From positions 64,001-128,000 of the IMG/VR virus record IMGVR_UViG_3300002835_000001: 64,000 bases of DNA; one strand, given 5' to 3'. The notes under the pieces were generated by a model. It saw only the letters and a program-made list of their open reading frames with translations, did not search any database and had not been told where the DNA came from. The position numbers were made by a program, and so were the translations under genes. The stretch comes from a virus. Taxonomy: Duplodnaviria; Caudoviricetes. Positions within the stretch are counted from its first letter, which is position 1; each line of letters begins with the position of its first letter. Positions 6,017-26,023 of the stretch are shown one piece after another.

Positions 6017-6823
6017 TTAAATTAAACTTTTTGGGGGTTGTGTTAATCCTGATGGTAGGTATTCGTTGAAGTTTTTATATATATGGTTGAATAATTTAGT
6101 TGCATACTCTTTATTATGTTTTGGTCCTGGATGGGTACCATCAACTCCCAAATCAATAAAAATTCCATAATTACCATCAAATCTATTTGGTTCATTATAG
6201 TCTATTGGGATATTTCTGAATCCATCCCATAACCAATTGCATTTTTTATCTTTTAAAAAATACTTAATTAATAAATGATTTTTATACCAATTTATAAAAT
6301 CTTCATTTTCGTTTTGTAATTCTACTAAATTTTTTTGTATTTTTATACCTTCTTCAGTTTCTTCCATAAATCCCCAAGATGATGTCGGCATAAAAGGTTC
6401 TACATTATTATCCTTAGTATAAAATTCTCTCCTAAATGAGTGTGGGTACATTATTAAAACTAAATCTGGTTTAATCAAATCGTAATAACTCATTAAACAT
6501 CTTACCACAAAATCTCCACTTCTACCGCCAGTCCCAAAATTAAAATTGACACCATTCGGTATTAATTTACAAAATTGATGCGGCCACGTTTCGTAATCAT
6601 TAACCGCAACACCTTCGGTAAACGAACAACCTAATGACATAACTTTAAAACCTTCTTTTTTTATACTATCACCTCTAAATCCTAATTCATTATAGGTGTA
6701 GGTACACAGTCCTGTATTATCTGATCCCGATGTTTTGAATATTTTGTTTTTTCGTTCATCTAATGAATATTTGTAAGATGAAATCTCAAAGGTTTCAGGA
6801 GTCCAATATTTTAATGATTCCAT
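6017..6823 (-). CDS. SGNH/GDSL-hydrolase-like protein
   Basis: YNELGFR followed by LGCSFTEG (block I Ser), NFGTGGRS (block II), HPGPKHN near the C-terminus. Confidence 0.6.
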   Translation of the reverse strand: MESLKYWTPETFEISSYKYSLDERKNKIFKTSGSDNTGLCTYTYNELGFRGDSIKKEGFKVMSLGCSFTEGVAVNDYETWPHQFCKLIPNGVNFNFGTGGRSGDFVVRCLMSYYDLIKPDLVLIMYPHSFRREFYTKDNNVEPFMPTSSWGFMEETEEGIKIQKNLVELQNENEDFINWYKNHLLIKYFLKDKKCNWLWDGFRNIPIDYNEPNRFDGNYGIFIDLGVDGTHPGPKHNKEYATKLFNHIYKNFNEYLPSGLTQPPKSLI

Positions 6824-7873
6824 TTAAATTAATGTTTTGTTAGTGTTATCTACAAACTCATATAGGTTATGAAATAGATTTTGATTTTTCCATATTTTAT
6901 TTAATTCTTTTTTAAATAAATGATGTTCAGGATGTTCGATATCCCATACTTGCTTTAATTTAAATTCACCTTCAGAGAATGTACCCCAATTAGTTATCTT
7001 ACCAAAGAATACGTTTACCTTTTTACCAAAAATAGAATACATCAGGTTATAAAATTCTTTCATTTCCATATAATTAGAATCTTGTACAACGAAGGATGTT
7101 TTCACATTTATTGGTAGAGTGCTTATGAATCTAAGATTACTTAATAAGTTCCCCCAATTACCCCCTAATCTTGTTTTATTTTCATAAGTGTCCTTTGTAC
7201 CCGCATCTATACTAATTTCACAAGTATGTACAAACTTATGAACATTTGGCATACTATCCCACATTTCTTTATTCCACATTGATGCATTTGTGTGAAGGTG
7301 TATAGATTTTAAATTTGGATATTTTTTGGGATTAAAATTTCTTAAATAATTTCTAAACCCAACCGACACAAAAGGATCTCCAGAACCTGTAATGTATAAT
7401 GTTTTTACGTATTGTGAAAAGTAATTATCAATATCTTCAATTGTCTTTTCTACTCGTTTTATACCTTTACTGTCTTCAACAATTAAATCTACCCTACATG
7501 ATGGACATTTGTAATTACAAGTCCTATCAAAATTCATTACCAAATAATCGGGTGTATTATTTGTTACAATCGGACTATTAATGTTTGAATCTGATTTTAA
7601 AGTAACAGGTCCTGATGTTACTCCGTAATTTACTAATTTACTTAAATAGGGACAAAGTTCTTTATTACAATACTTAAATGAACCATCTAATATAGAATTT
7701 CTAATATCAATAATTGGTTCGCTATTATAAACATCTTTTAATGGGATTTCACCAAGTTCTACTTTATTGGGTAACCAAGATGGACAGCACACAAAACAAA
7801 CATTGTTATGTATTTCTAACGATGTAAATGGTACACTACAAAAATAATTTTTTAAATCAATCTTATTACTCAT
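6824..7873 (-). CDS. Radical SAM protein with N-terminal SPASM/twitch-like Cys motif
   Basis: CNYKCPSC (CX3CX2C), ITGSGDPF, SIDAG; N-terminal CSVPF...VCC. Confidence 0.85.
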   Translation of the reverse strand: MSNKIDLKNYFCSVPFTSLEIHNNVCFVCCPSWLPNKVELGEIPLKDVYNSEPIIDIRNSILDGSFKYCNKELCPYLSKLVNYGVTSGPVTLKSDSNINSPIVTNNTPDYLVMNFDRTCNYKCPSCRVDLIVEDSKGIKRVEKTIEDIDNYFSQYVKTLYITGSGDPFVSVGFRNYLRNFNPKKYPNLKSIHLHTNASMWNKEMWDSMPNVHKFVHTCEISIDAGTKDTYENKTRLGGNWGNLLSNLRFISTLPINVKTSFVVQDSNYMEMKEFYNLMYSIFGKKVNVFFGKITNWGTFSEGEFKLKQVWDIEHPEHHLFKKELNKIWKNQNLFHNLYEFVDNTNKTLI

Positions 7874-9043
7874 TTAAATTAAAGTTTTAGGGATTGTTAG
7901 GTTTTCAACTTCATGGATTTTATTTAAAAAAAACTCGTTATATATTTTTTTTCTGTGTTGAAAATTAAAATATAATTCTTGGTTAAATCTACATATATCT
8001 AATACTTTGGGGGCGTCATAGATACTAGCCAGTTCTTCAGCGCTGTTTATAACTTGTGTTATTTTATCTTTACCTAACATCTCATCATAATCCTCATTAA
8101 TCACAGAATTAAATGTCTTGAATCCCATATCTCTTAAGGTTTTAAGATAGTGTTTAGATGGTGAATATATAACAAATGGGACACCTAAATAAATTGCTTT
8201 CCAGGTTTTTTCCGTCAGATGAATTGAATTTGAATATAACATTGTTTCCAATATAATATTAACTTTACTTTTATAATACCATTTGGGATTTATGGTGTAA
8301 AGATACTTTTCCATAACTAAATCAGCGCCATACATTACATCATCTTCTAACTGAATAGGGTTAAAGTTATCTACATCTATGTTTAATTCATTAAGTAATT
8401 CTTTATTTAATAGATTTTTATTTGTGCTATTTTTTACCCAGGAAAATCTAGTGTCATTTAACAACCCCATATGATATAACCTCTCAATTAATTTATATTT
8501 TTCATAACTCATTCTTCTATTTAAACATAAGAATTTTTTATCAGGTATAGTGTTAGGGTTTAATTCAGTTACATATGAATTTAAATGCTCATAGGTAGAT
8601 AAAAAGAAATTAGGAAAAAAACAGGTGTTTAATATAAAATTTCCATATTTTGTTTTACCCATACCAATTTTAGATGAATCGTTATTTACAATTATTAATC
8701 TGTTAAAATCAATTTTATTTTTTTTTAACAGATTAAAAAAATTCAAGGATAACTTATCCACCCAAAGTTCGGCTTCCCCGGAATTATTACACATAAAATA
8801 GAAATTTTCAGATTGTAATTTAATTAGTAACTCAATAAATTCACTAGAATGAGTATGCGCTATGTTTGGGTTATCGGAATTAGTCCATTCGGTTTCTAAC
8901 AAAAAAAATAAAAAATTTAATTTTGTGACATCTACCTTATCGGTGTGGATATTTTTAAATAAGATGTCACTATCTATTTTTTCGATTGAATTTCTAATAT
9001 TTGTATTTGGTAAGATATCACTATACCAAAATTGAATTTCCAT
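7874..9043 (-). CDS. Putative glycosyltransferase (GT10/GT-B-like)
   Basis: KFLCLNRR, ILET...LTEKTWKAI...PFVI...LRDMGFKTF, resembling the ITEK motif of GT10-like phage proteins. Confidence 0.45.
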   Translation of the reverse strand: MEIQFWYSDILPNTNIRNSIEKIDSDILFKNIHTDKVDVTKLNFLFFLLETEWTNSDNPNIAHTHSSEFIELLIKLQSENFYFMCNNSGEAELWVDKLSLNFFNLLKKNKIDFNRLIIVNNDSSKIGMGKTKYGNFILNTCFFPNFFLSTYEHLNSYVTELNPNTIPDKKFLCLNRRMSYEKYKLIERLYHMGLLNDTRFSWVKNSTNKNLLNKELLNELNIDVDNFNPIQLEDDVMYGADLVMEKYLYTINPKWYYKSKVNIILETMLYSNSIHLTEKTWKAIYLGVPFVIYSPSKHYLKTLRDMGFKTFNSVINEDYDEMLGKDKITQVINSAEELASIYDAPKVLDICRFNQELYFNFQHRKKIYNEFFLNKIHEVENLTIPKTLI

Positions 9044-9774
9044 TACAATAATGTTTTAGTTGTTTTTCTTTGGTCAAATTCTTTATAAAGATTATCATAT
9101 TTCTGTTTAAAATTATCATCGTTCTCCATTACTGAATTAAAATGTTTACTTGAATTTATTTTTTCCATTTTAAAATCTCTATTTAGTTTTTTTGACACCC
9201 AATTTTCTAATTCCATTAAATTATCAATATCAAACCAAATAATATTTGGATTGTCATTTGTGAGTTCAACTACTGGTGTAAATAATATATCTAACATATT
9301 TTTAGTATAGGGTTCTTTTTTTGAAATTTTTAACTTAGTTAAAAAATTATCAATAACTTTAGACCTATTTTCCAAATTATAAATGTCATTTGATGTGATA
9401 TTATCAAACATATCATTAGTTGTTAACTTTGAAAATTTATCAGCAATATCAAATTTATTTTTTCTGTATAATTCATCTATAATGTGTTTCCATAAAGATA
9501 AAAATCTATCATAATTGTTTCTTCTTATTGAAATAATTTGATTGTTTACACCAAATTTTTCTTGTAATATATATAATGATTCATGTGCGTGTGCTAAACT
9601 ATCCGCCAATTCTTCATTATTCATTTTTTCCCATTCATTTATTTTAATCAACTGATTATCAAGGTTTGAATTGAAATGTTCTATTGGTATCTTGTTTTTT
9701 AGACACGTAATCATAAATGATGTTGAAGCACATCTTGGTAAACTTATAAAAATAAATTTTTTATCTATTAACAT
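9043..9774 (-). CDS. Sulfotransferase family protein
   Basis: N-terminal FIFISLPRCASTS (5'-phosphosulfate loop); RRNNYDRFLSLW (3'-phosphate motif). Confidence 0.65.
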   Translation of the reverse strand: MLIDKKFIFISLPRCASTSFMITCLKNKIPIEHFNSNLDNQLIKINEWEKMNNEELADSLAHAHESLYILQEKFGVNNQIISIRRNNYDRFLSLWKHIIDELYRKNKFDIADKFSKLTTNDMFDNITSNDIYNLENRSKVIDNFLTKLKISKKEPYTKNMLDILFTPVVELTNDNPNIIWFDIDNLMELENWVSKKLNRDFKMEKINSSKHFNSVMENDDNFKQKYDNLYKEFDQRKTTKTLL

Positions 9775-10454
9775 TATATTAAATGATTTCCCTTTTCAAA
9801 TCTCTTTTCAAAATTTTCCCAAATGAATGATTTTAATTCGTCATTTACAATTATCTTATTTGGTCGTTTGGATGTTTTATTTGTGTGATTTATAATTAAT
9901 CTTTCTCCAAATCTATCTTCTATAAAATCTATAAATTTATCAATTTCACTAATGTCAAATTCGTAGGTACATTTTTTATTAGATTTGTAAAATCTTTGAG
10001 AGAGTAGAGTGTCAACCGCACCTCGAATTGGTAATTTACATTCAAAATTTTCTTTTACCAGTTTAAACCAGCATTTCCTAAATCCATCATAATCATTACT
10101 CACCAAATGTAAATTATTTAAAAAATCGGTATCAAATGTTTTATAGATATATTCATTATCAACATCCTCCCAATTACGAATTGCATTATATTCGCTTTCA
10201 AATTCTATATTATCCCAAATAAAATTTAAGGCACTTAACCATCTAAATAACCAATTACGAGTTATACAAACAGTTTCTTTATTACCCCATTGTTCTAAAC
10301 ATCGATTTAAAGGCGCATGATGGTGAGATGTTTTATCATTCTCATCAATTAATTCTAAATTTAATTTTGAGTTTCGTAATGAACTTTCAATGGAGTAACT
10401 AGCGCACTTTGGAATTGAAACCCAAATAAGTTCATTATTAATTAAATGAGACAT
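9774..10454 (-). CDS. Sulfotransferase family protein
   Basis: LIWVSIPKCASYS; TRNWLFRWLSA. Confidence 0.6.
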   Translation of the reverse strand: MSHLINNELIWVSIPKCASYSIESSLRNSKLNLELIDENDKTSHHHAPLNRCLEQWGNKETVCITRNWLFRWLSALNFIWDNIEFESEYNAIRNWEDVDNEYIYKTFDTDFLNNLHLVSNDYDGFRKCWFKLVKENFECKLPIRGAVDTLLSQRFYKSNKKCTYEFDISEIDKFIDFIEDRFGERLIINHTNKTSKRPNKIIVNDELKSFIWENFEKRFEKGNHLI

Positions 10455-10456
10455 TT

Positions 10457-10759
10457 TTATATAATTGTTTTAGTTGATTTAAACCCTTTTAAATATTCAT
10501 CTTCAACTTGTTTCCACTTTCCTAACGGACACGATCCCTTTTTATCTAAATATGTTTTGGGTGTGTATACTTTACCTTTTAATGGACAACCACATTCTCC
10601 ACATTTTAATGACCATTCTTTATTTTTATTTTTAAAAAATTCTTGTTTAGATGGACATTCTAAACAAATATCAAACCTACTATCTGCTAAGTTTTTTAAT
10701 TCATTAGAGTGTATAAGTGTATTGTACCACGCGATTGAAATTTCTTTGAAATCTATCAT
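10457..10759 (-). CDS. Small Cys-rich putative metal-binding protein
   Basis: CLEC...CGECGCPL..K...CPLGKW pattern (6 Cys), DUF6171-like by recollection. Confidence 0.55.
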   Translation of the reverse strand: MIDFKEISIAWYNTLIHSNELKNLADSRFDICLECPSKQEFFKNKNKEWSLKCGECGCPLKGKVYTPKTYLDKKGSCPLGKWKQVEDEYLKGFKSTKTII

Positions 10760-10760
10760 A

Positions 10761-11333
10761 TTATAAGAGTGTTTTTTTGTAACTACTTTTTTCTTTTATT
10801 GCAACCCAATTAACTAATGTATATCTATTACCATTTTTAACACCAGTTACTCTGTGTTCAATATCTGATAAAAAAACGATAGTGTTACCTATTCCCTTTT
10901 CTACTTTCATTATTGAACCATCGGATAATTTTAATTCTAAATCACCTTCTTCATATTCATCATTTAGTTGTATAACTAAAGAACAATATCTTTCGTGTTG
11001 TGTAACTTCTTTTCCTGTAATATCTTTATGCCAAACAAAAAAATCACCATCTTTATATTCTGTGAATTGAAATTGACTATTTTTGTAATCTAAATCGAAT
11101 CCTTTTATGGTGATATTTTCATCTAATAATTTAGATATTTTTTCTAATATAAATGGAAATTTTTGATAATATGGATAAAACACCACATTTGATTTTCTGG
11201 TATCATAAGTTGGGGAATCATAACCAATAGTTTTTGCTGGATTTAGTATTAAATTTTCTAATGTGAAATTTAGAACTAAATTACATTCTTCTTTTGTTAA
11301 TAAATTTGATATAGATTTATATGTAAACGACAT
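10761..11333 (-). CDS. 2OG-Fe(II) oxygenase (prolyl-4-hydroxylase-like)
   Basis: QFTEYKDGDFFVWHKD (HxD), YEEGDL, HRVTGV, RYTLVNW. Confidence 0.85.
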   Translation of the reverse strand: MSFTYKSISNLLTKEECNLVLNFTLENLILNPAKTIGYDSPTYDTRKSNVVFYPYYQKFPFILEKISKLLDENITIKGFDLDYKNSQFQFTEYKDGDFFVWHKDITGKEVTQHERYCSLVIQLNDEYEEGDLELKLSDGSIMKVEKGIGNTIVFLSDIEHRVTGVKNGNRYTLVNWVAIKEKSSYKKTLL

Positions 11334-11339
11334 AACTTT

Positions 11340-11870
11340 TTATATTAATGATTTTGTTTTTTTTGTTATATAGTTAACCGGCATCCAATGTAGAAAAAAT
11401 TGTAATACTCTTTGGGTTTCGTCGCATTCTAAAGGATTTCTCCAATGAACGTTTTTATCGGCATCAAATAATAATATTCCGTCGCCTATATTTGTGTGAT
11501 GTGAGTATTCTTCACCACCTATTTTAGCAAATAACGGCCATTCTTTGTTTATTGTTGACTCTAAACATATGGACATTGTTACACTTATATCTGTTCTATC
11601 TATATGTTTTGTTAAAAATGCACTATTGAAATACTCTCTGACATATGTGTTTACATTATCTAAATGTTCGATTTCATTATTGAATTCTAATACTTTTGGT
11701 TTTAGAATATCTAAATATTTATCAAAATTATATGAAGGTCTAAACCCAAAGGAAGCATTGGTATCTACTACTTTATCACCAGAAGCGTGATTTATCTTTT
11801 CAATATCAAATTGTTTAGATAAAAATACACATTCCTTCTTTGAAAGAATATTTGGAATGAAGTAAATCAT
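11340..11870 (-). CDS. 2OG-Fe(II) oxygenase-like protein
   Basis: YVREY...LTKHIDR (HxD), SVTMSICL, HWR, QFFLHW. Confidence 0.7.
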   Translation of the reverse strand: MIYFIPNILSKKECVFLSKQFDIEKINHASGDKVVDTNASFGFRPSYNFDKYLDILKPKVLEFNNEIEHLDNVNTYVREYFNSAFLTKHIDRTDISVTMSICLESTINKEWPLFAKIGGEEYSHHTNIGDGILLFDADKNVHWRNPLECDETQRVLQFFLHWMPVNYITKKTKSLI

Positions 11871-11888
11871 AACCTATTATTTTTAGAA

Positions 11889-11978
11889 TTAACTATTTGC
11901 TGTTACAATTAAATTACCAATGGTAGTTAAAGTTGTGTTCAGTACGTTGATTTCTGTGTTTGTTATTATAGTTGCCAT
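11889..11978 (-). CDS. Unannotated 29-aa ORF MATIITNTEINVLNTTLTTIGNLIVTANS
   Basis: Manual translation; fills most of the gap between two co-oriented genes; A-rich leader aaattaaaataatATG like its neighbours. Confidence 0.6.
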   Translation of the reverse strand: MATIITNTEINVLNTTLTTIGNLIVTANS

Positions 11979-12002
11979 ATTATTTTAATTTTTATTATTT
12001 TA

Positions 12003-13502
12003 TTAACTCCAACATATTCCTTGATAACCATTACATGTTGGACCCCATTGAGGACCACTACAATATGGTTCGTTTTTTGGACAAGTCGGACAAGTGCCCC
12101 CCCAACAACATCCCACTGGACAACCAGGTCCATTATGTTCAATCGAAACAAACGATTCATTATTTGTTGATGTGGTCTTAGTTAAAAATAAGTGTGTTCT
12201 TTCTACTGAAATAAACCAACCGGTAAATACTTTTTTAATTTGTGTAACAGATACTACTGTTTTTCTAACAAAATCCATTAACCCATCCGTTGTGTTTAAC
12301 AATAAAACCGCATCTCCAGATACCACATCAAATAAATTTTCAAATTGAACTTCATTATTTCTTTCAATCAAATACGAAGAAACTCCAGTATCCTCCCAAG
12401 TACTATTATCGTCAAAAGTTAATTGATAAAAATATGATAATTTATTAACTCTTTTTAATGCATTAATTTTGTTTGTTGAATATGTTGTACCACTTAGTAA
12501 TGTTTCATACGTTATTCCAAAATTTGCGGTATAGGATGCATTATCTGTACCATTTGGATTTGGTATATCAATTGTTTTAATTAAATCATCAACATTTAAA
12601 TCTAATGCGGTTTTAAATGTGCCGTCAGCCATTTCTACTAAATCAGTATCTAACAGTTTTGGTAACCAGTTACTATTTACAGAAGTTGTATAACTATCTC
12701 TATATTCTGAATTTATCTCATAAGTTTCTGAGTTATATTCTACATCAGTAAAAAATATATTTTCATTTAATTTAGTATATTGTCCTATATGAATTGATTG
12801 TAACGTCGGTGGGTATAATATGTTTAAACTTCTAACTACCTTTATGTGACCTTCGTAACTATTAGTGGTGTTACAGTAGTTTTCCATTAAAAAATATTCA
12901 GATGTAACATTTTCTAAAACCACATCTAATTCTTCTTGTGTTGTTACTTTATAAAATTTAGGATAAACCTCTTTATCATAGCCAGGATACCTTGATTTTA
13001 GAATAAAATTAGGGTGTACACCATTATCTGTTATTGTTGTTATAGTATTAATTAAAGTGTTGTTTTCATCTATGTAAGCAAATTGTGAACCGAACGATTG
13101 GGATTGGATAAGTTTCATAAATTCAACCTTATCTCTACAATAGGTATCATCTACCAACGCAGTTGTATCATATGCACTTCTGATAATTAATGTTTCATCA
13201 TTATCCTCTATAACTGGGATAGTAATCGACAAACCACCGATTGCGTGGTATTCATATGTAACGGAACTTCCTGTGTAGTGTGTTTCTAATGTTTTATGAA
13301 AATATTGAATATCCCCAACGTAATGTATATTTTGGAAATTATTATCAGTAACAAATTGGTATAAATTTGTTAAATCCAAACAATCCACATCATCTTCAAC
13401 TTTGGATGCGTTATCCCAACCAACTGCGGTGTTTATTTCGATGGGTTTTAAATTACCATCCTGATCGTACATAAAGTCCGAACCTATTAATACTGTTCTC
13501 AT
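12003..13502 (-). CDS. Fusion of a circularly permuted ATP-grasp-like domain, a Hint domain and a C-terminal 8-Cys peptide
   Basis: N-terminal GSDFMYDQDGNLKPIEIN, FILKSRY, LMENY; Hint block A LLDTDLVEMADGTFKTALDLNVDD, block F VERTHLFL, block G IEHN; then GPGCPVGCCWGGTC... Confidence 0.7.
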   Translation of the reverse strand: MRTVLIGSDFMYDQDGNLKPIEINTAVGWDNASKVEDDVDCLDLTNLYQFVTDNNFQNIHYVGDIQYFHKTLETHYTGSSVTYEYHAIGGLSITIPVIEDNDETLIIRSAYDTTALVDDTYCRDKVEFMKLIQSQSFGSQFAYIDENNTLINTITTITDNGVHPNFILKSRYPGYDKEVYPKFYKVTTQEELDVVLENVTSEYFLMENYCNTTNSYEGHIKVVRSLNILYPPTLQSIHIGQYTKLNENIFFTDVEYNSETYEINSEYRDSYTTSVNSNWLPKLLDTDLVEMADGTFKTALDLNVDDLIKTIDIPNPNGTDNASYTANFGITYETLLSGTTYSTNKINALKRVNKLSYFYQLTFDDNSTWEDTGVSSYLIERNNEVQFENLFDVVSGDAVLLLNTTDGLMDFVRKTVVSVTQIKKVFTGWFISVERTHLFLTKTTSTNNESFVSIEHNGPGCPVGCCWGGTCPTCPKNEPYCSGPQWGPTCNGYQGICWS

Positions 13503-13520
13503 ATTTTCCTTATTTTATAT

Positions 13521-13528
13521 ATAAATAC
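13521..13528 (-). promoter_or_regulatory. Putative late-promoter motif (AA)GTATTTAT upstream of the ATP-grasp/Hint gene
   Basis: About 19 nt upstream of the ATG at 13502; same motif precedes fibre genes. Confidence 0.5.
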
Positions 13529-13744
13529 TTATTTTTTATCTTTTACCCCAAACTTTATCCATCTATACCAAATCCTTTCATGTAGGTAATATTGAATAGG
13601 TTTGTATACCAATTCAGCCACGCCAAAAGTCACACCAATCTTAATTGAACCGCTTACCCACCACATTATAACAAATCCAATAAGGGTACTTACAATTCTA
13701 TATGAAATGGTTTTGGCTATGTGTCTTTTTCTTTCTACTATCAT
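13529..13744 (-). CDS. DUF2061-like small membrane protein
   Basis: KTISYRIVSTL...ELVYKPIQYYLHERIW pattern; family commonly adjacent to APS kinase. Confidence 0.7.
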   Translation of the reverse strand: MIVERKRHIAKTISYRIVSTLIGFVIMWWVSGSIKIGVTFGVAELVYKPIQYYLHERIWYRWIKFGVKDKK

Positions 13745-14124
13745 TATCCCTTTGTTTGATCATATTTAATTTCACCATCAGGTGTCATGTGACCAGTCCT
13801 AATGGCCGTTCCACTAATCGTCGATATCTCAGCTGGTGGTTCATGGTATATTACATCATAACCAACCCCTCTACCATAATTGATGCTATCAATATCTGGA
13901 ATAATAGATATTTGAATCTTCTGTGAATTTTCTCTAAAGAATGGTTCTTCACTTAGATCCATCATAACTTGCTGTGCTGTCTTGGGGTTATTTTCATCTG
14001 TGGGTACGTTCCGAATTGCAACCCACACATCTTTTCCTTTATCTAATTGTTGGTTAATAAGCCATTCGTGGCCCTTATGCCAATTTTGCCAACGTCCCAC
14101 ATACATTGCGTATTTTTTACTCAT
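13744..14124 (-). CDS. HIGH-superfamily (cytidylyltransferase-like) nucleotidyltransferase
   Basis: VGRWQNWHKGH (HxGH) and ISGTAIR. Confidence 0.75.
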   Translation of the reverse strand: MSKKYAMYVGRWQNWHKGHEWLINQQLDKGKDVWVAIRNVPTDENNPKTAQQVMMDLSEEPFFRENSQKIQISIIPDIDSINYGRGVGYDVIYHEPPAEISTISGTAIRTGHMTPDGEIKYDQTKG

Positions 14125-14555
14125 AATGATAATTTTTTTAACAGTTCATAATATGAATCTGTTTCGTTTTTTATTGTTGTGTCTATATCTATAAAATTTT
14201 CTAATGGTGGTTCATATTCCTCAACGTGGAATTGATTCCTACCCCTATCCTCTGTGGTGTGTACATAAATCTCAACAACCGATGTGCTGAATTTAAACGC
14301 CTCTCTTTGGTCTCTATATGGTGAAACTAGGGATACAATAACATTGTGCCCCTTACTATGCATGAATTGTGCGATGTATTGTGCTCTTTGAATATTTAAT
14401 CTTCTTCCTGTAATGGAATAGTCTTTATTCTTAAAGATGTCTCTTAGGTCATCCCCATCTATGTGGGTAACCTCATCTTTGGGGAAATGTTCCACCAAGT
14501 ATTTTGCCAAGGTTGTTTTTCCTGCTCCGGGTTGTCCTGTTAGCCAATATATCAT
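14121..14555 (-). CDS. cysC: Adenylyl-sulfate (APS) kinase
   Basis: YWLTGQPGAGKTT P-loop, IDGDDLR, GRRLNIQR, VIVSLVSPYRDQR, YEPP. Confidence 0.85.
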   Translation of the reverse strand: MIYWLTGQPGAGKTTLAKYLVEHFPKDEVTHIDGDDLRDIFKNKDYSITGRRLNIQRAQYIAQFMHSKGHNVIVSLVSPYRDQREAFKFSTSVVEIYVHTTEDRGRNQFHVEEYEPPLENFIDIDTTIKNETDSYYELLKKLSL

Positions 14556-14559
14556 ATTA

Positions 14560-14591
14560 CTAATATAGTTAAAATTATTTGAAAAATCAAA
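14560..14591 (-). promoter_or_regulatory. Bacteroidota-type sigma70 promoter candidate TTTG-N20-TATATTAG upstream of cysC
   Basis: One mismatch to TTTG-N19-21-TAnnTTTG. Confidence 0.5.
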
Positions 14592-14705
14592 TTAATGATT
14601 GTAAATAAATGGGTCTCTTTTACGTAATTCTTCTAATTTCTTCTTAAAACGTTTTTTACGTTTATAATCCTCAATTTTTGATTTAATCCATTTAAGTATA
14701 TTCAT
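14592..14705 (-). CDS. Unannotated 37-aa basic ORF (MNILKWIKSKIEDYKRKKRFKKKLEELRKRDPFIYNH)
   Basis: Manual translation; starts 4 nt after the carbamoyltransferase stop. Confidence 0.6.
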   Translation of the reverse strand: MNILKWIKSKIEDYKRKKRFKKKLEELRKRDPFIYNH

Positions 14706-14709
14706 AGTT

Positions 14710-16374
14710 TTATTTATATATTAAATAATTACCAATAACTAATAAATCAATATCGGTATTAAAAAAGGTATACATTGCGTCTTTTGGTGTTAAGACCATA
14801 GTTTTATCTTTAATATTAAAAGACGTATTCAATAATATTGGATAACCAGAACACTTCTCAAACTCCATTAATAAGTCATAAACTAACATATGTTTGTATA
14901 CTGTTTGTATTCTTGCACTTCCGTCTACATGTGTAATTGAAGGTAGTTTATCTTTAAATTCTGGTTTTACCTGAACAATTTGATTCATATAAGGTACATC
15001 ATCAGTAACATCAAAAAAAACATGTTGTTTATCTTTTATAACCATTGGTGCAAATGGTCTAAACTCTTCTCTTTTTTTTACCAATCTATTAATTCTGTCT
15101 TTCATTTCTATTTTAGTTGGGTCAGCTAATATTGACCTATTACCCAATGCCCTTGCCCCAAATTCCATAGAACCTTGAAACCAACCAACTACTTTACCTT
15201 CGTTTAATTTTTTTGCAATATTTCTTACTAATGTTTCCTTAGACATAAATTTATAATACCGATTCCCTTTAATAGCTTCAAGTATTTGGTTCTCGTGAAA
15301 GTATGGGCCAATAAATGGGTTCTTATTAATTCTTTCTTTAAATTTATTGTTATTTATTAAATAATTAATACAAGCTCCTATTGCTGAACCAGCGTCAGAT
15401 GGGGCGGGTGGTATCCACAGATTATTGAAATGGCTATTTCTCACTATCTTACCGTTAGCGGTCCCATTATACGCACAACCCCCTCCTAATGATAAATTTC
15501 GATTATCATTTATCATATAAATCGATTTTAAGACCTCGAAAAGTATTTCCTCATATCTTTTCTGTACTGAGGCTGCTAAGTCTTTATAATGAGGTTCTAT
15601 CCCCCTTTCAGGATCCCTTGGTTCTATCTCCAGTAATTCAATTAACTTCTCATTAAACATTAACTTGTCAGATGTATTCCATGTGAATATGTCCATGTTA
15701 CAAGTTAGTTTACTATTCTTATAGTTAATTAATTTTCTAACTTTATCAATGTAAACATCTGGATTACCATAAGGTGCCAATCCCATTACCTTATATTCTC
15801 CTTCATTTGGCCTAAACCCTAAGAATGATGTCATTGCAGAATAAAATAAACCAATAGAGTGGGGGTATTCCGCCATTGATATTTTACTTATACCTTTTTT
15901 ATCTGCCAACGCCATGGACATTGTTTCATATTCACCAACACCATCTATGGATAAACAAATACCATTATCGAAATTTGAACTATAAAAAGAATAGTAGAGG
16001 TGAGAATCGTGATGGTTAGAATAAAATACCTTGTTACCATATTTTGGTAACAATTTATTTAAATTCCATATATTTTTTTTAATTTTAAAATATGATTTAA
16101 TTGAGTATATTGGATTAGTAAATAATTGACCTTTTATATTATTGATAACCCTCTTTAACTTTAATTTAGGGTTCTCGTAATAACAAATAGCCTCAACCTT
16201 ATCTTTGGTTAGTTTGTATTTTTTGTACACATAGTTTAATGAGTTAATTGGGAAAGAACTATCGTGTTTTATTCCTGTAAATTTTTCTTCTTCACAAGCG
16301 TAAACTAATTGTCCGTTTTTAAATAAACAAACGGATGAATCATGATAATATGCTGATATTCCTATTATATACAT
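14710..16374 (-). CDS. Carbamoyltransferase (NodU/CmcH/TobZ family)
   Basis: GISAYYHDSS, EEKFTGIKH, HHDSH, SIDGVGE, EYKVMGLAPYG, FGARALGNRSILADP, RPFAP, THVDGSARIQT, LLNTSFN. Confidence 0.92.
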   Translation of the reverse strand: MYIIGISAYYHDSSVCLFKNGQLVYACEEEKFTGIKHDSSFPINSLNYVYKKYKLTKDKVEAICYYENPKLKLKRVINNIKGQLFTNPIYSIKSYFKIKKNIWNLNKLLPKYGNKVFYSNHHDSHLYYSFYSSNFDNGICLSIDGVGEYETMSMALADKKGISKISMAEYPHSIGLFYSAMTSFLGFRPNEGEYKVMGLAPYGNPDVYIDKVRKLINYKNSKLTCNMDIFTWNTSDKLMFNEKLIELLEIEPRDPERGIEPHYKDLAASVQKRYEEILFEVLKSIYMINDNRNLSLGGGCAYNGTANGKIVRNSHFNNLWIPPAPSDAGSAIGACINYLINNNKFKERINKNPFIGPYFHENQILEAIKGNRYYKFMSKETLVRNIAKKLNEGKVVGWFQGSMEFGARALGNRSILADPTKIEMKDRINRLVKKREEFRPFAPMVIKDKQHVFFDVTDDVPYMNQIVQVKPEFKDKLPSITHVDGSARIQTVYKHMLVYDLLMEFEKCSGYPILLNTSFNIKDKTMVLTPKDAMYTFFNTDIDLLVIGNYLIYK

Positions 16375-16459
16375 TGTTTTCTATTGTATTTATAATAAAT
16401 AGTATCCTTATTTTTAGTTTCTTTCTACGGGTTTAAAATAACAATATCCTTACTGACAC

Positions 16460-17227
16460 CTATATTAATTTACTTTTTTTTGGTTCTTTATTGATGATTT
16501 CATAAACTTTTTTTGCCCAATATTCGTGAGCGTCTTCACCAAAATGTCCCCTTTTAGAATGTACGGACCATTTAAAATTGGTTTTATTAGTTAAATGTCC
16601 AAAAAAGGCTTGGTCGGTATTGTTAAACCCAATATGTTTTATTTTTTTAGTATCATCATATAACCAAAGATTATTAATGTATGATGAACTTAAAATGTGA
16701 TTTTTATCTACATCTTCTAAACTCAAAAAGGAATGTAACCCATTTAAAAATGTATATTTAATTTTAAAAGTATCTAAAAAAATAGATAAATTATTTACAT
16801 ATATTAAATTTTTTAAATTAGAATATAATATGTCATGAAAATAAACTATTGTATCTTTAAATTTTTGCAATTCCATTTTCATACCTGTTGAAGCGTATTT
16901 TAGATCATACGCTGGATTTATATTACTGACCTGATTAACGTCTGAAAAATATAATTCTTTTCTGTCAAATCCTGACCACATAACAATCACATGTAAATCT
17001 TCTATTTTACGTGATTTATTAATTAATACATTTTCAATTATCCAATCTTGGGTTGTTCTAAAAATGTATTCATTACTTGCACCTCCTACGGCAATATTAA
17101 CATATTCATCTCCAGTCATGTTGGATAAAAATTTACCCCACGATTTTTCATAACAAGATGGTTGATTTGTATATTCTATTTCAGAACCTGCGGTATGACT
17201 ACACCCATTAAATAACATTATCCCCAT
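16460..17227 (-). CDS. SGNH-hydrolase-like protein
   Basis: FNGCSHTAG, NIAVGGASN, VMWSGFDRKE, HFGEDAH. Confidence 0.55.
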   Translation of the reverse strand: MGIMLFNGCSHTAGSEIEYTNQPSCYEKSWGKFLSNMTGDEYVNIAVGGASNEYIFRTTQDWIIENVLINKSRKIEDLHVIVMWSGFDRKELYFSDVNQVSNINPAYDLKYASTGMKMELQKFKDTIVYFHDILYSNLKNLIYVNNLSIFLDTFKIKYTFLNGLHSFLSLEDVDKNHILSSSYINNLWLYDDTKKIKHIGFNNTDQAFFGHLTNKTNFKWSVHSKRGHFGEDAHEYWAKKVYEIINKEPKKSKLI

Positions 17228-20200
17228 TATATTAAATTTCTTAAAATTGGTCCAGTGGCAATTGAGATTTTTTTAGATTTACTACGAAACTGTTCATGAA
17301 TTGTTTCTTTCACCAATGAATCTTTAGTTAACCATTTATATATGTTACCATTATTATTAAAGGTATCTTTAAATGACATGTCACCATGACTATTTTGTCT
17401 TTCCCATTTATATGTTTCTTCTATTTTTGGTGTCATTCCATAGTGTTTCATTTCGTGGCTAATGTTATATTGGTAATTACCCATATCATCAATTTCAAAT
17501 GAAATATTTGCAATATAATTAACAGATATACTACCCCATGATGTAATGTCTTTTTCTGGATCAAATGTTATATTAATTTTAAACCCTTTGAATATCCTAA
17601 ATAAACCATAGAATATTGGTAAAAATTCATTTGCAATGTTTGTACTTAAAAATGAGGTTGACATATCTTCAGTTATTAACTTGAAGTTAATGTTATCGTC
17701 TTGCGGTATATATTCATCAATATTGATGTTTGATGTCTCAAATGTAAAACATTCAGTAATATCTCCATGTCTTTGTGCATTTTCTACAACACTACCTGCG
17801 AAGTCCTTTAATATCTCTAACCAAATATGAAAACACTTAATTCTTACGAAACGATTTAATTGTGTATTTTTGTATCCATGTGTGTACCAATTACCAAATA
17901 CTTGATTGTCCCATATTCTTTCTTGCCAAGCTATTCCGTAAATGTCAAATCTTTCTTGTAAATCACTAAGTGCACTTGGTCCGCAACCCATACCCGGACT
18001 TAATTGATGGATATACTTTCTCACATTATAAATTAAAATATTACTATGATAATAATCGATATGTTCTTCTGTTGGGAATCCGATTAACCAATTAACGTGA
18101 GTCCAAATTTTTTGAGTCAAGTATGTGTCTTTTAGATTGCTTTCAATTTCCCAAATCTCAATTCTTTTTCTCATATCATTAAGAACCTTTTGACTACCTG
18201 ACTCAACCCCGTAACTTAATGCGGTACATCCCGAATCTGCAATCTTATTGATAAATTCTTTGGTCATTCTACCATCACATCTACTGTAACTATTCCAACC
18301 AATATCTAGTTTATTTTCAATAATTAAATCCACCAGTTTTTGAAAATTAGCAAGGTTACCATTTACCAAACTATCCACAAACCAAAATCTTCTAACACCA
18401 TATGTTTCAATTTGATACTTCATTTCCTCAACTACCCTTTTTGGTGTCATAGATCTAAATCTCCAAAAATAAGTTTCAGCACAAAAACTACATTGAGCAA
18501 CACATCCTCTTGATGTTTCAATACTAACACCATCTTTATGTAAATAAGATTCTAAATCGTAATCCGTAAAATCGGCATACGCTTTATCATCTAAATTTAA
18601 TCTACTATTTGAATCACCAATAAAAACACCTTCACTTGGTAATCTCTTTAAATGTGTTTCATCATTTAAAAAGTTTACAAAACTTTCTTCCGCTTCACCT
18701 TTAAAAAAGTAATTAACATACTTTGAAAATTGTGATGACAGTAACCACGCTTCGGTTGACACTGCTGGTCCGCCAACAACAATTGCAACATTGGGTAATT
18801 TCTCTTTTAATTTTTTTACCATTAATAGAGTTGCCTGACTGTTAGTGGTATACATACTGAACCCAATAACGGTTGGTTTATCTAATACAATTTTATCCAC
18901 CGCAGCATTTAAAAACGGTTCTATTTCTTTTAAAAGATACTTATTAAAAAACCAAGAATCTTCCCAATAGAAAAACTTCTCCGATCTCCAATAATCTTCT
19001 CCTGTCCTTTCAATTAAATTATGATATAATTGAACATTTAAATCATATACTTTACAGGCAAATCCTTCCTTTCGTAATGTACCAACAATCTTAGATAAAC
19101 CATATGGTGGGAAAATAACACCCCAACTTGGACATATCGCCATTACAACTCTCTCACGTCCCTCATTAAAATCTTTTAATGCTGTTGGTTCGTTAAAATT
19201 TTGATATTTTAATTGTCCATTAACACCTATATGTGCTGACGCATGATTCATCGGCATTTTAGTTGTTGATTGTACATCCCTTTCTAAAATATGTTTTAAA
19301 ATTAATTGGTCTCTATCCGCACCAATCGATTCAATTTGTTCTTTTAATTTAATTGACTCTTCATTAAAATATAATTTATCAATGAATGAACACGTTGGGT
19401 CAAATCCAACTAATACCGTGTTGTTAGGTAAGTTGTACATAAATTCATTATACTTTTCTTCAATTTTACTTAACCCTATAAATGAGTTGGTAAAATCGGT
19501 ACAATAAATGTTTGATATACTGATATAATTTTTTTGTCCATCGACTTTATCTAATAATGATTTAGGGTTTTGTATTAAATCAATATGTAATAATTCAACA
19601 TCTAACGTTCTAAATTTGTCTAAAAATTCATAAAATAGGTTTTCTCCCCCGAAGTAATCAAAAGTTCGATTTAAACTTAATAAAAAGTTATTTGTGAATT
19701 TTCCATCAATACCAAATACCTTTTGTCCCATTCCTAAAAAATGAAAAAAATTATTATCACTAAATTGGTTAATTAACAGTTTAATGTCTCGTATGTTACT
19801 TTTATAAATTAAATCAATCCACGCTAAACTCTTTTCATTAAAATCATATATGATTAATTTACCACCTTCTTTTAAATGATTACTCTTTAATGAATCTAAA
19901 AATTTAAACCCACCCGCAGGAACCGCAATTGTGTCAAACTTATTATTTTTATACCCATAGGTTAAATTCATATCTTCTGAATTTAATAACCATATTTGAT
20001 TTTTAATTGAATTTGGTATTTGTAATAGCTTAACTTGGTTTATGTTGAGGGTGGTATCAACTGTTTGTGTTTTTAAACATTCTAAGAATCTATCGCTGTT
20101 AGATTCGGGATAATAGTACGTTCTTTTATTTCTTATTGTTTCATTCCAATTGATGATATCAAATCCGTTCTTTAGTGATTCATTAATAAATTTCCACCCT

Positions 20201-20742
20201 TGCTTTTGGTGGTATTGTTTTTCGATTTGTCCCGTATTTTTAATCCATAGTGGTGTGTAGTCATCGTGAAAATTTTCAACACTTCTTTCTATTACAACTA
20301 AATCATCCTCCTCATATTCCCATCCACCATATTCGGGTTTACCTGCTTTTACCCAATTTTTAGTGTTAACTAACACAAATTGATGATGCAATTCATACCA
20401 AAGTTCTTTCCATTCTAATATATGACCCGCAGCCATATAATTTGGATTTTTAAGAATTTCATTTTTAATGTCAAATATTATTGAGCTATCAAAAATACGA
20501 ACTCCCGCCGCCATGAATAATATGTGGTCATATTTTTCATAATTCTCTTCTAATGCTTTATATATTGATTCACTTTCAAAAACGTCAATTGTTTTATTAG
20601 AAATTTCATTGATTCTATAGGAATAGAATTTAGTAAATTCAACCATTCTTTTAGATAACTCTTCGTTATGAAGTGTATCTGAAGGAAATATACAAATTGA
20701 AAGATTAATGTCGTTTATAAAACTATCGTGAATTATGTCCAT
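17227..20742 (-). CDS. Large fusion: unknown N-terminal region, B12-binding domain and radical SAM domain
   Basis: PPYGL, DLN, IGFSMY, VVGGP, GEAE (cobalamin-binding); IETSRGCVAQCSFC; GVESGSQKVLNDMRK. Confidence 0.85.
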   Translation of the reverse strand: MDIIHDSFINDINLSICIFPSDTLHNEELSKRMVEFTKFYSYRINEISNKTIDVFESESIYKALEENYEKYDHILFMAAGVRIFDSSIIFDIKNEILKNPNYMAAGHILEWKELWYELHHQFVLVNTKNWVKAGKPEYGGWEYEEDDLVVIERSVENFHDDYTPLWIKNTGQIEKQYHQKQGWKFINESLKNGFDIINWNETIRNKRTYYYPESNSDRFLECLKTQTVDTTLNINQVKLLQIPNSIKNQIWLLNSEDMNLTYGYKNNKFDTIAVPAGGFKFLDSLKSNHLKEGGKLIIYDFNEKSLAWIDLIYKSNIRDIKLLINQFSDNNFFHFLGMGQKVFGIDGKFTNNFLLSLNRTFDYFGGENLFYEFLDKFRTLDVELLHIDLIQNPKSLLDKVDGQKNYISISNIYCTDFTNSFIGLSKIEEKYNEFMYNLPNNTVLVGFDPTCSFIDKLYFNEESIKLKEQIESIGADRDQLILKHILERDVQSTTKMPMNHASAHIGVNGQLKYQNFNEPTALKDFNEGRERVVMAICPSWGVIFPPYGLSKIVGTLRKEGFACKVYDLNVQLYHNLIERTGEDYWRSEKFFYWEDSWFFNKYLLKEIEPFLNAAVDKIVLDKPTVIGFSMYTTNSQATLLMVKKLKEKLPNVAIVVGGPAVSTEAWLLSSQFSKYVNYFFKGEAEESFVNFLNDETHLKRLPSEGVFIGDSNSRLNLDDKAYADFTDYDLESYLHKDGVSIETSRGCVAQCSFCAETYFWRFRSMTPKRVVEEMKYQIETYGVRRFWFVDSLVNGNLANFQKLVDLIIENKLDIGWNSYSRCDGRMTKEFINKIADSGCTALSYGVESGSQKVLNDMRKRIEIWEIESNLKDTYLTQKIWTHVNWLIGFPTEEHIDYYHSNILIYNVRKYIHQLSPGMGCGPSALSDLQERFDIYGIAWQERIWDNQVFGNWYTHGYKNTQLNRFVRIKCFHIWLEILKDFAGSVVENAQRHGDITECFTFETSNINIDEYIPQDDNINFKLITEDMSTSFLSTNIANEFLPIFYGLFRIFKGFKINITFDPEKDITSWGSISVNYIANISFEIDDMGNYQYNISHEMKHYGMTPKIEETYKWERQNSHGDMSFKDTFNNNGNIYKWLTKDSLVKETIHEQFRSKSKKISIATGPILRNLI

Positions 20743-21415
20743 ATAATGTATTAGTGTAAGTTATTGAATCGTTTAATAATTTAGGATTAATCCATCCATG
20801 AACAATTACATGGTATCTATCTTCGTTAGAATTATTCCAAACCGCGTGTTCATTTCCTAAATCAAGGAATACACCTCTACCTTTTTTAAATGGGACTAAT
20901 CCATGGTCTTTAAATACGAACTGACAACCCTCAGGGTTGTTTATTGCTATATTAAGTGGTCCAAAAATTCTTCCTTTACCATCGGTGTGAGGCATAACAA
21001 ACCCGCCAGACTCTAACTTCATAATTCTAACTCTATCATATTGTTCATATCCTAATGATTTTATAAAGTTAGTTAATTTTGGGAGATATTCGCAAACATC
21101 GGTCCAATGATAATTCGCCTCTTCTTGCGTGTTGAATCCGTATCTGTCGAAGTGTTCTGTCTTAGTCGAATCGATTCCGTGTAACGTCACTGCGTTCCAT
21201 CCTTCGTGATTATATGATTTAAGTTTATCTTTATCCCTATGTTTGACAAAATATGTTTTTTCTAATAATTTAATTTCTTCTAACATCCCATCAAAATCAT
21301 TATCAAAATCAATCACAGAGTACGGCCAATTACAATTTGTATCAAATATATTTTCAGGTATACCATTAGATGTCCAACTATTAGTTAACGCGTCATCAAA
21401 AAAATTTTTTATCAT
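20723..21415 (-). CDS. Aspartyl/asparaginyl beta-hydroxylase-like 2OG-Fe(II) oxygenase
   Basis: RVRIMKLESGGFVMPHTD, HAVWNNSNEDRYHVIVHG. Confidence 0.8.
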   Translation of the reverse strand: MIKNFFDDALTNSWTSNGIPENIFDTNCNWPYSVIDFDNDFDGMLEEIKLLEKTYFVKHRDKDKLKSYNHEGWNAVTLHGIDSTKTEHFDRYGFNTQEEANYHWTDVCEYLPKLTNFIKSLGYEQYDRVRIMKLESGGFVMPHTDGKGRIFGPLNIAINNPEGCQFVFKDHGLVPFKKGRGVFLDLGNEHAVWNNSNEDRYHVIVHGWINPKLLNDSITYTNTLYGHNSR

Positions 21416-22386
21416 ATTAATTTCTTTTTTACCAACTCTGGGCTTCTTTTACTTATCATAACATCTGTTGCACAATGACAAATATGCCATGGACAGGTAA
21501 TAGGACCAGTTGGCCATTTTATTTCCTCTAATTTATTAATATTACCAAGATTAAAACCAACACAATTACCTCGTTTTATTTCACCATCGGCAAAAATAAA
21601 TAAAGATTCTAATCCAATGTCACATTGATACCCAAAGAAATTACTTAATCCTTCATTAATGTAGTCAACAGCATCTGCTTTTGTATCAACGGTACCGTCA
21701 GATAAAATAAAATGTGCACCAATTAATGCTGTTTTATTAACTGTTGGTATTAATGTTTTTGTGTTAACTCTATTGTCACCTTTAAACCATTCTAATTGTT
21801 CTTCAGTATAAACCAACGTATCTCTATCGAGTTGGTCCCAATCAAGTATTTTTACTGCCTCCATATTAAAATATTGCATCACATCACTTTCCTTAGTTGT
21901 ATTAAACATATTAACGGCAACCTCCCAATGTTTTGGATCCATCATAATCCTTAAAGAACAATAACAATTATCTACAGATGCTTTAATTTTTTCAAGAACT
22001 TTATTCTTATCACCATATTGTGGATGATAAGAAAATACTATATAATTAACATATTTTGATAGTTCTGAATAATATTCAACATTCCTTGTCCCATTTGATG
22101 TTAAACCAACTGTACTTCCCTTTTCATGTATCATTTTACACAAATCAAGTAAAAATGGTGACATTGTTGGTTCACCTCCAGCGATTGATACGTGTATTTT
22201 TGGATATCTTACAAATAATTCATCGAAGAACTTTTTAACCTCCTCCCAAGTGTAACCATGATTATGTCCACTATGTAAAGCATCGACACAATAAGCGCAT
22301 TTATTAGAACATATTGTATTAATTACCCACGTTACCTGTAAAACGTCAGGATGGTTATTAATTACTTCATTTATTTTTACTCTCAT
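21412..22386 (-). CDS. Radical SAM protein with C-terminal Cys cluster
   Basis: CSNKCAYC, GGEPT, TSNG; C-terminal CDIG...GNC...CPWHICHC. Confidence 0.85.
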   Translation of the reverse strand: MRVKINEVINNHPDVLQVTWVINTICSNKCAYCVDALHSGHNHGYTWEEVKKFFDELFVRYPKIHVSIAGGEPTMSPFLLDLCKMIHEKGSTVGLTSNGTRNVEYYSELSKYVNYIVFSYHPQYGDKNKVLEKIKASVDNCYCSLRIMMDPKHWEVAVNMFNTTKESDVMQYFNMEAVKILDWDQLDRDTLVYTEEQLEWFKGDNRVNTKTLIPTVNKTALIGAHFILSDGTVDTKADAVDYINEGLSNFFGYQCDIGLESLFIFADGEIKRGNCVGFNLGNINKLEEIKWPTGPITCPWHICHCATDVMISKRSPELVKKKLI

Positions 22387-23363: not shown

Positions 23364-23365
23364 AA

Positions 23366-25937: not shown

Positions 25938-26023
25938 ATATTCTATATTAATATATACATTTTAATTGAATTTATCAAGGAGTTAATTATATGATTTTTC
26001 TCACATAATTGGTCTGAAAACGG

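Follow-up and report, generated by a model that had tools for sequence, protein, structure and literature searches.

A C-terminal tag shared by unrelated proteins encoded around an ATP-grasp/Hint fusion in uncultivated phages

Proteins of widely different families, encoded side by side in an uncultivated phage, end in nearly the same few residues, with the general form [K/N]-[T/S/K/N]-L-I and the free carboxylate. The tag was seen in a 64,000-nt stretch of a Caudoviricetes virus (positions 64,001 to 128,000 of the IMG/VR record IMGVR_UViG_3300002835_000001), here called the window, in which nearly all genes lie on the minus strand. Eight abutting genes of that strand, running from 11870 to 6017, encode proteins that end [K/N]-[T/S/H]-[L/I]-[I/L]. 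They belong to at least six unrelated groups: two 2-oxoglutarate (2OG) oxygenases, two sulfotransferase-like proteins, a radical S-adenosylmethionine (SAM) protein, a glycosyltransferase (GT)-like protein, an SGNH-like protein and a 100-residue Cys-rich protein (Table 1). The large gene upstream of them encodes an untagged protein, here called the hub, in which a putative ATP-grasp domain, a Hint domain and a Cys-rich peptide are fused. The shared ending is real almost beyond doubt, and it is very likely a functional tag that acts at the level of the protein and is specific to the system of the hub. As to what reads the tag, we tentatively favor the hub itself, on which the tailoring enzymes would dock in trans, a possible reading rather than a probable one.

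The tag in the window had been described in an earlier note made from the sequence alone, and all eleven C-termini quoted there proved correct when they were re-read from the sequence. Besides the eight-gene block, three further genes upstream of it are tagged, and the rest of the window is without the tag. Endings in L-[IL] are found in 10 of the 18 open reading frames (ORFs) within 6017–22386 and in 0 of the 38 ORFs of the remaining window (Fisher p = 1.2e-6). The earlier note had seen the tag on no fibre, adhesin, redox, nusG or dam gene, many of which are packed as tightly. The eight genes also lie where the earlier note had placed them, directly downstream of the ATP-grasp/Hint gene after a 29-aa ORF, and that ORF is conserved.

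The pattern extends to many related phages. Scans of viral contigs with the GT-like and radical SAM proteins as queries gave 136 loci from uncultivated phages, on contigs of up to 335 kb; a third scan with the hub protein as query gave about 70 additional loci, so that more than 200 related loci are at hand overall. The 2,785 ORFs of the first locus set were clustered, a protein was called tagged if it ended in [LIM][ILM], and families with at least five distinct sequences were counted (n = 65). The distribution of the tagged fraction over the families has two modes: 45 of the 65 families are 0–10% tagged and 12 are tagged at 80% or more. Over the more than 200 loci, the number of unrelated families tagged at 80–100% comes to at least 15, against 0–10% in most of the others. 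The tagged families comprise, among others, several 2OG and cupin families, two sulfotransferase families and the radical SAM, GT-like, SGNH-like, Zn-ribbon and SET-like families. In a logo anchored at the C-terminus and built from 532 proteins with equal weight per family, position -1 is I (78%) or L (11%), position -2 is L (78%) or I (11%), position -3 is T/S (about 50%) or K/N (about 39%), and position -4 is K (48%) or N (22%), with a slight excess of Lys reaching -7. The last four positions hold about 7 bits of information in tagged families, as compared to 0.3–0.6 bits per position in untagged families. A terminal F or M is a minor tolerated variant. The earlier note had suggested tabulating the last residues over a whole genome. 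In the complete relative G001 (335,630 bp), such a tabulation finds the tag enriched in the cluster and not genome-wide: 7 of the 11 genes of the homologous block are tagged, as against 12 of 412 ORFs elsewhere (p = 3e-8).

The tag is linked to the hub. Each of the eight virus records examined that have tagged genes also encodes a homolog of the hub (in one case a 912-aa variant). With the hub gene as anchor of 71 loci, the genes at +1 to +8 are tagged at 50–75% and those beyond 14 genes at 0–5%, and two or more tagged genes lie inside eight genes in 70 of these loci. The hub is the only universal member of the cluster that is untagged. The small Cys-rich, Zn-ribbon-like protein is nearly universal, and its gene usually adjoins that of the hub. 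There is strong support for assigning the tag to the tailoring enzymes of the ATP-grasp/Hint cluster. The partition within the cluster is also informative. The most constant neighbors of the hub are never tagged: adenosine 5′-phosphosulfate (APS) kinase in 0 of 18 cases, a 126-aa protein in 0 of 26 and a DUF2061 protein in 0 of 22 (families 15, 11 and 10). These genes presumably supply 3′-phosphoadenosine-5′-phosphosulfate for the sulfotransferases. Since such cofactor-supply neighbors are untagged, the tag appears to mark enzymes expected to touch a macromolecular substrate.

The tag is kept by selection on the protein and is not a signal in the DNA of gene junctions. Its residues stay constant across orthologs of 27–97% identity while the codons change: Leu at -2 is spelled by all six of its codons (TTA, TTG, CTA, CTT, CTC and CTG), Ile at -1 by all three (ATA, ATT and ATC) and Thr by four, and the Ser codons also vary. 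Codon variation had earlier been taken to favor protein-level selection; the claim is correct for the window, and orthologs bear it out much more strongly. All genes have reached saturation in their synonymous divergence between clusters (dS 0.8–1.7), so that the constancy of the tag is not due to recent common descent.

The rival explanation at this level is that the tag is a by-product of DNA or translation, be it an initiation context rich in A/T, a signal for stop-restart coupling or a micro-homology for recombination at cassette borders. The region is indeed strongly A+T rich (24.5–28% G+C across 6–12 kb of the window; about 35% in the left flank), and in most cases the end of a tagged gene adjoins or overlaps the start of the next gene. 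The window tail N-H-L-I is one inserted base away from K-S-L-I. The likely hosts make no use of Shine-Dalgarno pairing: the ribosomal protein bS21 is encoded in G001 (G001:122185-122331) and in a second relative, G002, and these match in size and habitat the bS21 phages described from freshwater Bacteroidetes (PMC9723584), so that the hosts are probably Bacteroidota. A/T-richness, however, gives no reason to prefer Leu-Ile over Lys, Asn, Phe or Tyr, and the residues stay while everything around them varies. The 402 tagged genes use TAA (232), TGA (114) and TAG (56) as stop codons; the distance to the next ATG ranges from an ATGA overlap to over 40 nt, and for 72 of the genes (18%) none is found within 17 nt. 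Tagged genes are arranged in different orders among phages, and hence have different downstream neighbors. Genes at the ends of operons are still tagged: in the window the SGNH-like gene closes its operon, with 55 nt of non-coding DNA behind it, and its orthologs retain x-L-I where non-coding DNA comes next. Another relative (G004) has a tagged GT-like gene at a distance of about 60 kb from the cluster, surrounded by untagged genes. Finally, at tightly coupled junctions outside the cluster region of G001, the upstream gene is tagged in 0 of 96 cases. The earlier note had named loss of the motif on gene reordering, and equal frequency genome-wide, as what a mere DNA context would produce; the motif survives the shuffling and is missing from the coupled junctions elsewhere. 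With codons, stops, spacing and gene order all varying, and with tags at operon ends, we reject a junction-DNA or coupling signal, and a by-product origin of any of these kinds seems hardly credible.

The distribution among homologs argues that proteins acquire the tag, as an add-on, on joining the ATP-grasp/Hint system. Among 150 representatives of the radical SAM family (clustered at 50%), 12 of the 30 nearest are tagged and 9 of the next 120. GT-like orthologs of at least 55% identity are tagged in 15 of 16 cases, and homologs of at most 34% identity, from other phage contexts, are mostly untagged (four end SLI, KLL or GII). The tag also sits on an exposed and flexible C-terminal tail. An alignment of 45 2OG paralogs (about 20–60% identity) has a linker of variable length between the last strand of the fold and the aligned tag. 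In the AlphaFold2 model of the 190-residue 2OG oxygenase (pLDDT 90), the tail (residues 182–190) is coil, with a block pLDDT of 68.

The hub, as modeled by AlphaFold2 (pLDDT 82), consists of a putative, permuted ATP-grasp domain (about residues 1–250), a Hint domain (about 254–457) and a disordered Cys-rich tail (about 458–499). The Hint part resembles inteins, bacterial intein-like domains and Hedgehog in Foldseek searches (E about 1e-6; TM-score by target 0.64–0.76). The His-Asn pair at its C-terminus (H456 and N457) is invariant across 34 aligned sequences. At the start of its block A the consensus is P-K-L-L-D-T-D, with Lys, not Cys or Ser, at the position of the intein nucleophile. Asn cyclization is the C-terminal cleavage step of intein chemistry, and with Lys at the nucleophile position only this step is expected; the domain is thus predicted to be cleavage-only, on its C-terminal side. 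The ATP-grasp part has no Pfam match. Residues 2–246 weakly match eukaryotic glutathione synthetase, itself a permuted ATP-grasp (Foldseek E about 5e-5, TM-score 0.27), and the E-x-N motif of Mg/ATP binding (E22 and N24) is invariant at the very N-terminus, which implies the permuted order. About 25 ATP-grasp residues are invariant in the hub family, including D9, E22, N24, R108 and K169. The nearest named atlas clusters carry the YheCD, TTL, ATP-grasp_3, GshA and RimK families, which is a lead only.

All 46 distinct family members listed have the invariant His-Asn followed by 35–45 hypervariable residues with 6–8 Cys. This is the layout seen with peptides that are ribosomally synthesized and then post-translationally modified (RiPPs): a conserved part joined to a hypervariable core and flanked by tailoring enzymes. 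In one clade the core (the last approximately 43 codons of the hub gene; in the window 12003-12131, minus strand) keeps a central C-P-K with an acidic residue after it, possibly an in-cis lactam site for the fused ATP-grasp domain. The hub system appears to be virus-only. Among metagenome proteins the hub family counts 781 members, not one of which is named; a search of 185,579 species genomes gave a single match, on a 2-kb contig of a metagenome-assembled genome, and neither DNA nor protein searches turned up relatives in 50,697 GenBank phage records.

Some variations on the theme may be mentioned here. In locus L121 the hub gene (L121:3230-5968, plus strand) encodes 912 residues: an ATP-grasp domain, an extra middle part and a Hint domain that ends His-Asn-Lys, with no fused core. 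A 50-aa ORF follows the gene, and the neighboring enzymes are still tagged. One 211-kb contig (L190 and L217) carries two hub genes, one of them with a full tagged cluster; the companions of the other (L190) are only a Zn-ribbon protein and a sulfotransferase, both ending K-T-L-F. We considered K-T-L-F as an orthogonal tag and rejected it, since -L-F is a minor variant within many ordinary clusters. The 29-aa ORF next to the hub gene (rich in T, N and I) is found at the same place in clade A loci, where it is 83–100% identical and the hubs are 63–99% identical. This excess of identity over that of the hubs marks it as a real, strongly constrained and untagged micro-gene.

The radical SAM protein is the most conserved protein of the cluster. 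Its nonsynonymous divergence (dN) is 0.05–0.27, and at most about 0.1 in six of eight comparisons, with dS about 1 (dN/dS about 0.05–0.25); it is 66–92% identical (at least 79% in seven of the eight comparisons) where the hubs are about 30% identical. The constraint is unusually strong for an accessory phage gene. The hub, in seven cross-clade comparisons, has a dN of 0.73–0.81, about 0.75.

We propose tentatively how these parts may work together. The tag would be a short linear signal marking those enzymes that work on the product of a peptide-maturation system found only in viruses. Through it each enzyme would attach in trans to the conserved part of the hub (ATP-grasp/Hint), which would serve as a large 'leader protein', and the docking would hold the enzymes beside a core peptide too variable for direct recognition. 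After modification, Asn cyclization at the Hint C-terminus would free the peptide. A four-residue add-on would in this way stand in for the enzyme-borne leader-binding domains of ordinary RiPP pathways, and would explain how enzymes of any fold are freely gained, lost and shuffled. The hypervariability of the core peptide speaks for docking, when set beside the constancy of the tag across hub clades that are 26–30% identical. Glutathione synthetase and ligases of the TTL, RimK and YheCD types bind C-terminal carboxylates of peptides or proteins, and kinship to such carboxylate-gripping ligases makes the ATP-grasp domain a natural candidate for the pocket.

Several points weigh against docking on the hub. 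The consensus of the tag is the same in all five of these hub clades, with no co-variation with hub clade, and a conserved host reader would explain such invariance equally well. The fast evolution of the hub is unusual for the reader of an invariant tag, yet its ATP-grasp residues noted above are invariant. Tagged genes also occur outside the core block, both in the window (16460, 17227 and 21412) and in G002. That the enzymes act on the Cys-rich peptide we infer from gene context only. The earlier note had proposed a shared docking or targeting signal; the part that holds is a protein-level signal shared by the enzymes of this cluster, and what the tag binds we can only infer.

A conserved host reader leads to a different reading, in which the tag would be a C-terminal degron or a host-factor signal, recognized by a machine such as a ClpXP-type unfoldase/protease, FtsH or a chaperone, with the enzymes short-lived or handled together. 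The invariance of the tag across very divergent clusters is what such a reader predicts, and a basic then hydrophobic extreme C-terminus is loosely like the MuA-type signal of ClpX. Full-length ClpP is encoded in three of five related phage records (E = 4e-58; G001:212668-213195). No phage-encoded PDZ or TPR reader was found: five related records gave no match to the PDZ domains PF13180 and PF17820 (with positive controls) or to the TPR domains PF13432 and PF13424. ClpX, however, is not phage-encoded in any of the five records searched, G002 is tagged but has no ClpP match (it is 86% complete), and the motif is not LAA-like. Nor does a degron account for the restriction to the enzymes of one system and for the untagged cofactor-supply enzymes in the same operon; outside the cluster region of G001 the tag is at about background level. 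We consider this reading unlikely.

The reader could also be another phage protein or the enzymes themselves, as in a multi-enzyme complex organized by a protein such as the Zn-ribbon protein, or the tag could sort the enzymes to a compartment or the virion. The near universality of the Zn-ribbon protein and the usual adjacency of its gene to the hub gene would suit such a role, as would the extraordinary constraint on the radical SAM protein relative to the hub, organizing proteins being often so constrained. Both proteins, however, are tagged themselves, and the radical SAM protein is missing from G002, the cluster of which is fully tagged; the radical SAM protein as universal reader is rejected on this ground. 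The tagged block shows no linkage to a structural or packaging gene, as the fall of tagging with distance from the hub gene also indicates. Thus a reader of this kind is distinctly unlikely.

Finally, the tag might be a covalent handle, its terminal carboxylate or a Lys or Thr of the tail being the substrate of the ATP-grasp ligase, which would extend it or join it to an amine (for example, the N-terminus of the Hint-freed peptide). The invariance of the catalytic-looking ATP-grasp residues fits this, as do the nearest named relatives, which are ligases of the TTL, RimK, YheCD and GshA kind. Several ligases of this kind act on protein or peptide C-termini, and the strict placement of the tag at the very C-terminus would suit recognition of a carboxylate. 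On the other hand, there is no precedent or evident use for a covalent coupling of so many enzymes to a substrate, and in many cores the conserved Cys-Pro-Lys, with an acidic residue next to it, offers the ATP-grasp domain a more ordinary substrate in cis (a lactam, as in graspetides). A covalent role is improbable. Its boldest form would be a phage-encoded conjugation of protein and peptide, in which the ATP-grasp domain activates the tag carboxylate and joins it to a Hint-freed or other amine; a more moderate form of the idea would be a first RiPP-like pathway in which an enzyme tag and a self-cleaving, protein-sized leader replace the pairing of leader and RiPP recognition element (RRE). 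We regard this as a long shot.

Table 1. Tagged genes of the window, the hub gene and its untagged neighbors
Feature	Coordinates	Strand	Basis and remarks
SGNH-like hydrolase/acyltransferase, 268 aa, ends PPKSLI	6017..6823	-	GCSFTEG and DGTHPG motifs in sequence
Radical SAM protein (twitch-type, peptide-maturase-like), 349 aa, ends TNKTLI	6824..7873	-	PF04055, NF033640; family 3, tagged 98%
GT-like protein, 389 aa, ends IPKTLI	7874..9043	-	Function a weak lead to GT10 (atlas lead scores 0.81)
Sulfotransferase-like protein, 243 aa, ends TTKTLL	9043..9774	-	phrog_3347 galactose-3-O-sulfotransferase, E = 1.8e-4; family 4
Sulfotransferase-like paralog, 226 aa, ends KGNHLI	9774..10454	-	Clusters with the 9043..9774 protein in family 4, tagged 98%
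Small Cys-rich (Zn-ribbon-like) protein, 100 aa, ends STKTII	10457..10759	-	Family 7, tagged 79%
2OG-Fe(II) oxygenase, 190 aa, ends YKKTLL	10761..11333	-	Pfam PF13640, E = 5e-12; family 0, tagged 83%, 140 distinct sequences
2OG-oxygenase-like protein, 176 aa, ends KTKSLI (tag codons 11343-11354)	11340..11870	-	PHROG matches; family 14, tagged 15/15
Conserved 29-aa ORF, untagged (ends TANS), between hub gene and first tagged gene	11889..11978	-	83–100% identical in clade A loci
Hub, untagged: ATP-grasp, Hint and Cys-rich peptide, 499 aa	12003..13502	-	AlphaFold2, Foldseek, family alignment
Three untagged neighbors: DUF2061 membrane protein, 126-aa protein, APS kinase	13529..14555	-	Pfam
DUF6071 protein, ends KKSKLI (extra tagged gene)	16460..17227	-	Pfam
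B12-binding radical SAM protein, 1171 aa, ends LRNLI (extra tagged gene)	17227..20742	-	Pfam
Radical SAM protein, 324 aa, ends KKKLI (extra tagged gene)	21412..22386	-	Pfam

A few other features of the window deserve a word. The extra tagged genes lie in a second block of modification genes upstream (14710-28812, minus strand), with a carbamoyltransferase, a B12-radical SAM protein, an Asp/Asn hydroxylase and several radical SAM paralogs; some of its proteins are tagged and others are not. Opposite the Zn-ribbon gene, and slightly longer, is a plus-strand ORF of 106 aa (10446-10766), probably a spurious artefact of ORF calling. The fibre region has a shared C-terminal motif of its own: six minus-strand proteins (65-880, 893-1609, 41884-42711, 42721-43497, 45923-46651 and 46662-47984) all end [RS]-R-[FY]-G-[ILVR]. 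Five of the six start M-P-[LF], the protein at 41884 starting MGIIIG, and they are probably paralogs.

Our search of the literature met with neither this tag nor an ATP-grasp/Hint precursor; PMC2938197 and PMC9723584 come nearest as context. Arrays of dioxygenases with sulfotransferases were noted in cyanophages, with no shared tag or Hint-bearing precursor described there (PMC2938197). Abundant freshwater phages appear to use the system to produce Cys-rich peptides that are hypervariable and heavily modified. Should the tag be a docking signal, peptide maturation would here be organized in a new and very economical way, with any enzyme able to join once it acquires four residues at its C-terminus. 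That would account for the free shuffling of enzyme sets, and synthetic biology would gain a portable recruitment tag. Whatever the reader, the tag provides a simple sequence rule for listing the enzymes of a system that is otherwise unannotatable, with its hub homologs in metagenomes and none in cultured phages, and the pattern is clean enough for direct testing with peptides and pull-downs.

How does the tag compare with known systems? Within peptide maturation, RiPP pathways offer the obvious comparison, including those with the protein-like leaders of the nitrile hydratase and Nif11 types (PMC12537861, PMC10858898). There too a hypervariable core is joined to a conserved recognition part, and many enzymes serve one precursor. 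In known RiPPs, however, the binding domain is on the enzyme and the linear motif on the precursor, whereas the polarity proposed here is reversed; in peptide maturation the tag would be a new variant in this respect. The proposed leader also differs from known ones in being a 457-aa ATP-grasp/Hint protein with autocatalytic release. The Pfam and NCBIfam matches of the eight tagged enzymes comprise catalytic domains only, with no RRE or PqqD among them, structure-based RRE detection not having been part of this comparison.

Other C-terminal signals are alike in form to varying degrees. About half of the tags (K-T-L-I and K-S-L-I) fit the class I PDZ ligand, [S/T]-x-hydrophobic-COOH, exactly, but PDZ ligands leave the penultimate position free, whereas here it is a strictly conserved Leu, and K or N often replaces T or S. 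The ClpX signals (LAA of ssrA; RRKKAI of MuA) are also at the extreme C-terminus, that of MuA being basic and then aliphatic like the tag, and some of the phages here encode ClpP; their sequences are otherwise different, and restriction to one cluster is not expected of a general degron. The cargo peptides of encapsulins and microcompartments, to which the earlier note had likened the tag, are likewise terminal peptides common to unrelated enzymes. They are, however, about 10–20 residues long, have another consensus and occur beside a shell gene; none was noticed in the tagged block, in which no hidden Markov model search for one was made, and the analogy is without specific support.

Two systems come closer. 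The peroxisomal targeting signal PTS1 (S-K-L-COOH, read by the TPR protein Pex5) is likewise a motif of three to four residues at the extreme C-terminus of many unrelated enzymes, with a basic residue before the terminal aliphatic one, and is likewise an add-on absent from homologs that work elsewhere. PTS1, however, is eukaryotic and serves organelle sorting, whereas the phage motif is K-T-L-I, not S-K-L, and comes without a TPR protein in the five phage records or a known compartment. In phages themselves, the clamp-binding tails of T4 and the acidic tails of T7 gp2.5 and gp4 are examples of unrelated proteins of one phage that dock on a common partner by a shared short C-terminal tail. Such tails, acidic or aromatic in character, have their role in DNA transactions, whereas the tag described here is basic and aliphatic and is found on putative peptide-tailoring enzymes. 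By analogy, then, the nearest functional counterpart of the tag would be a C-terminal address of the PTS1 or phage-tail kind.

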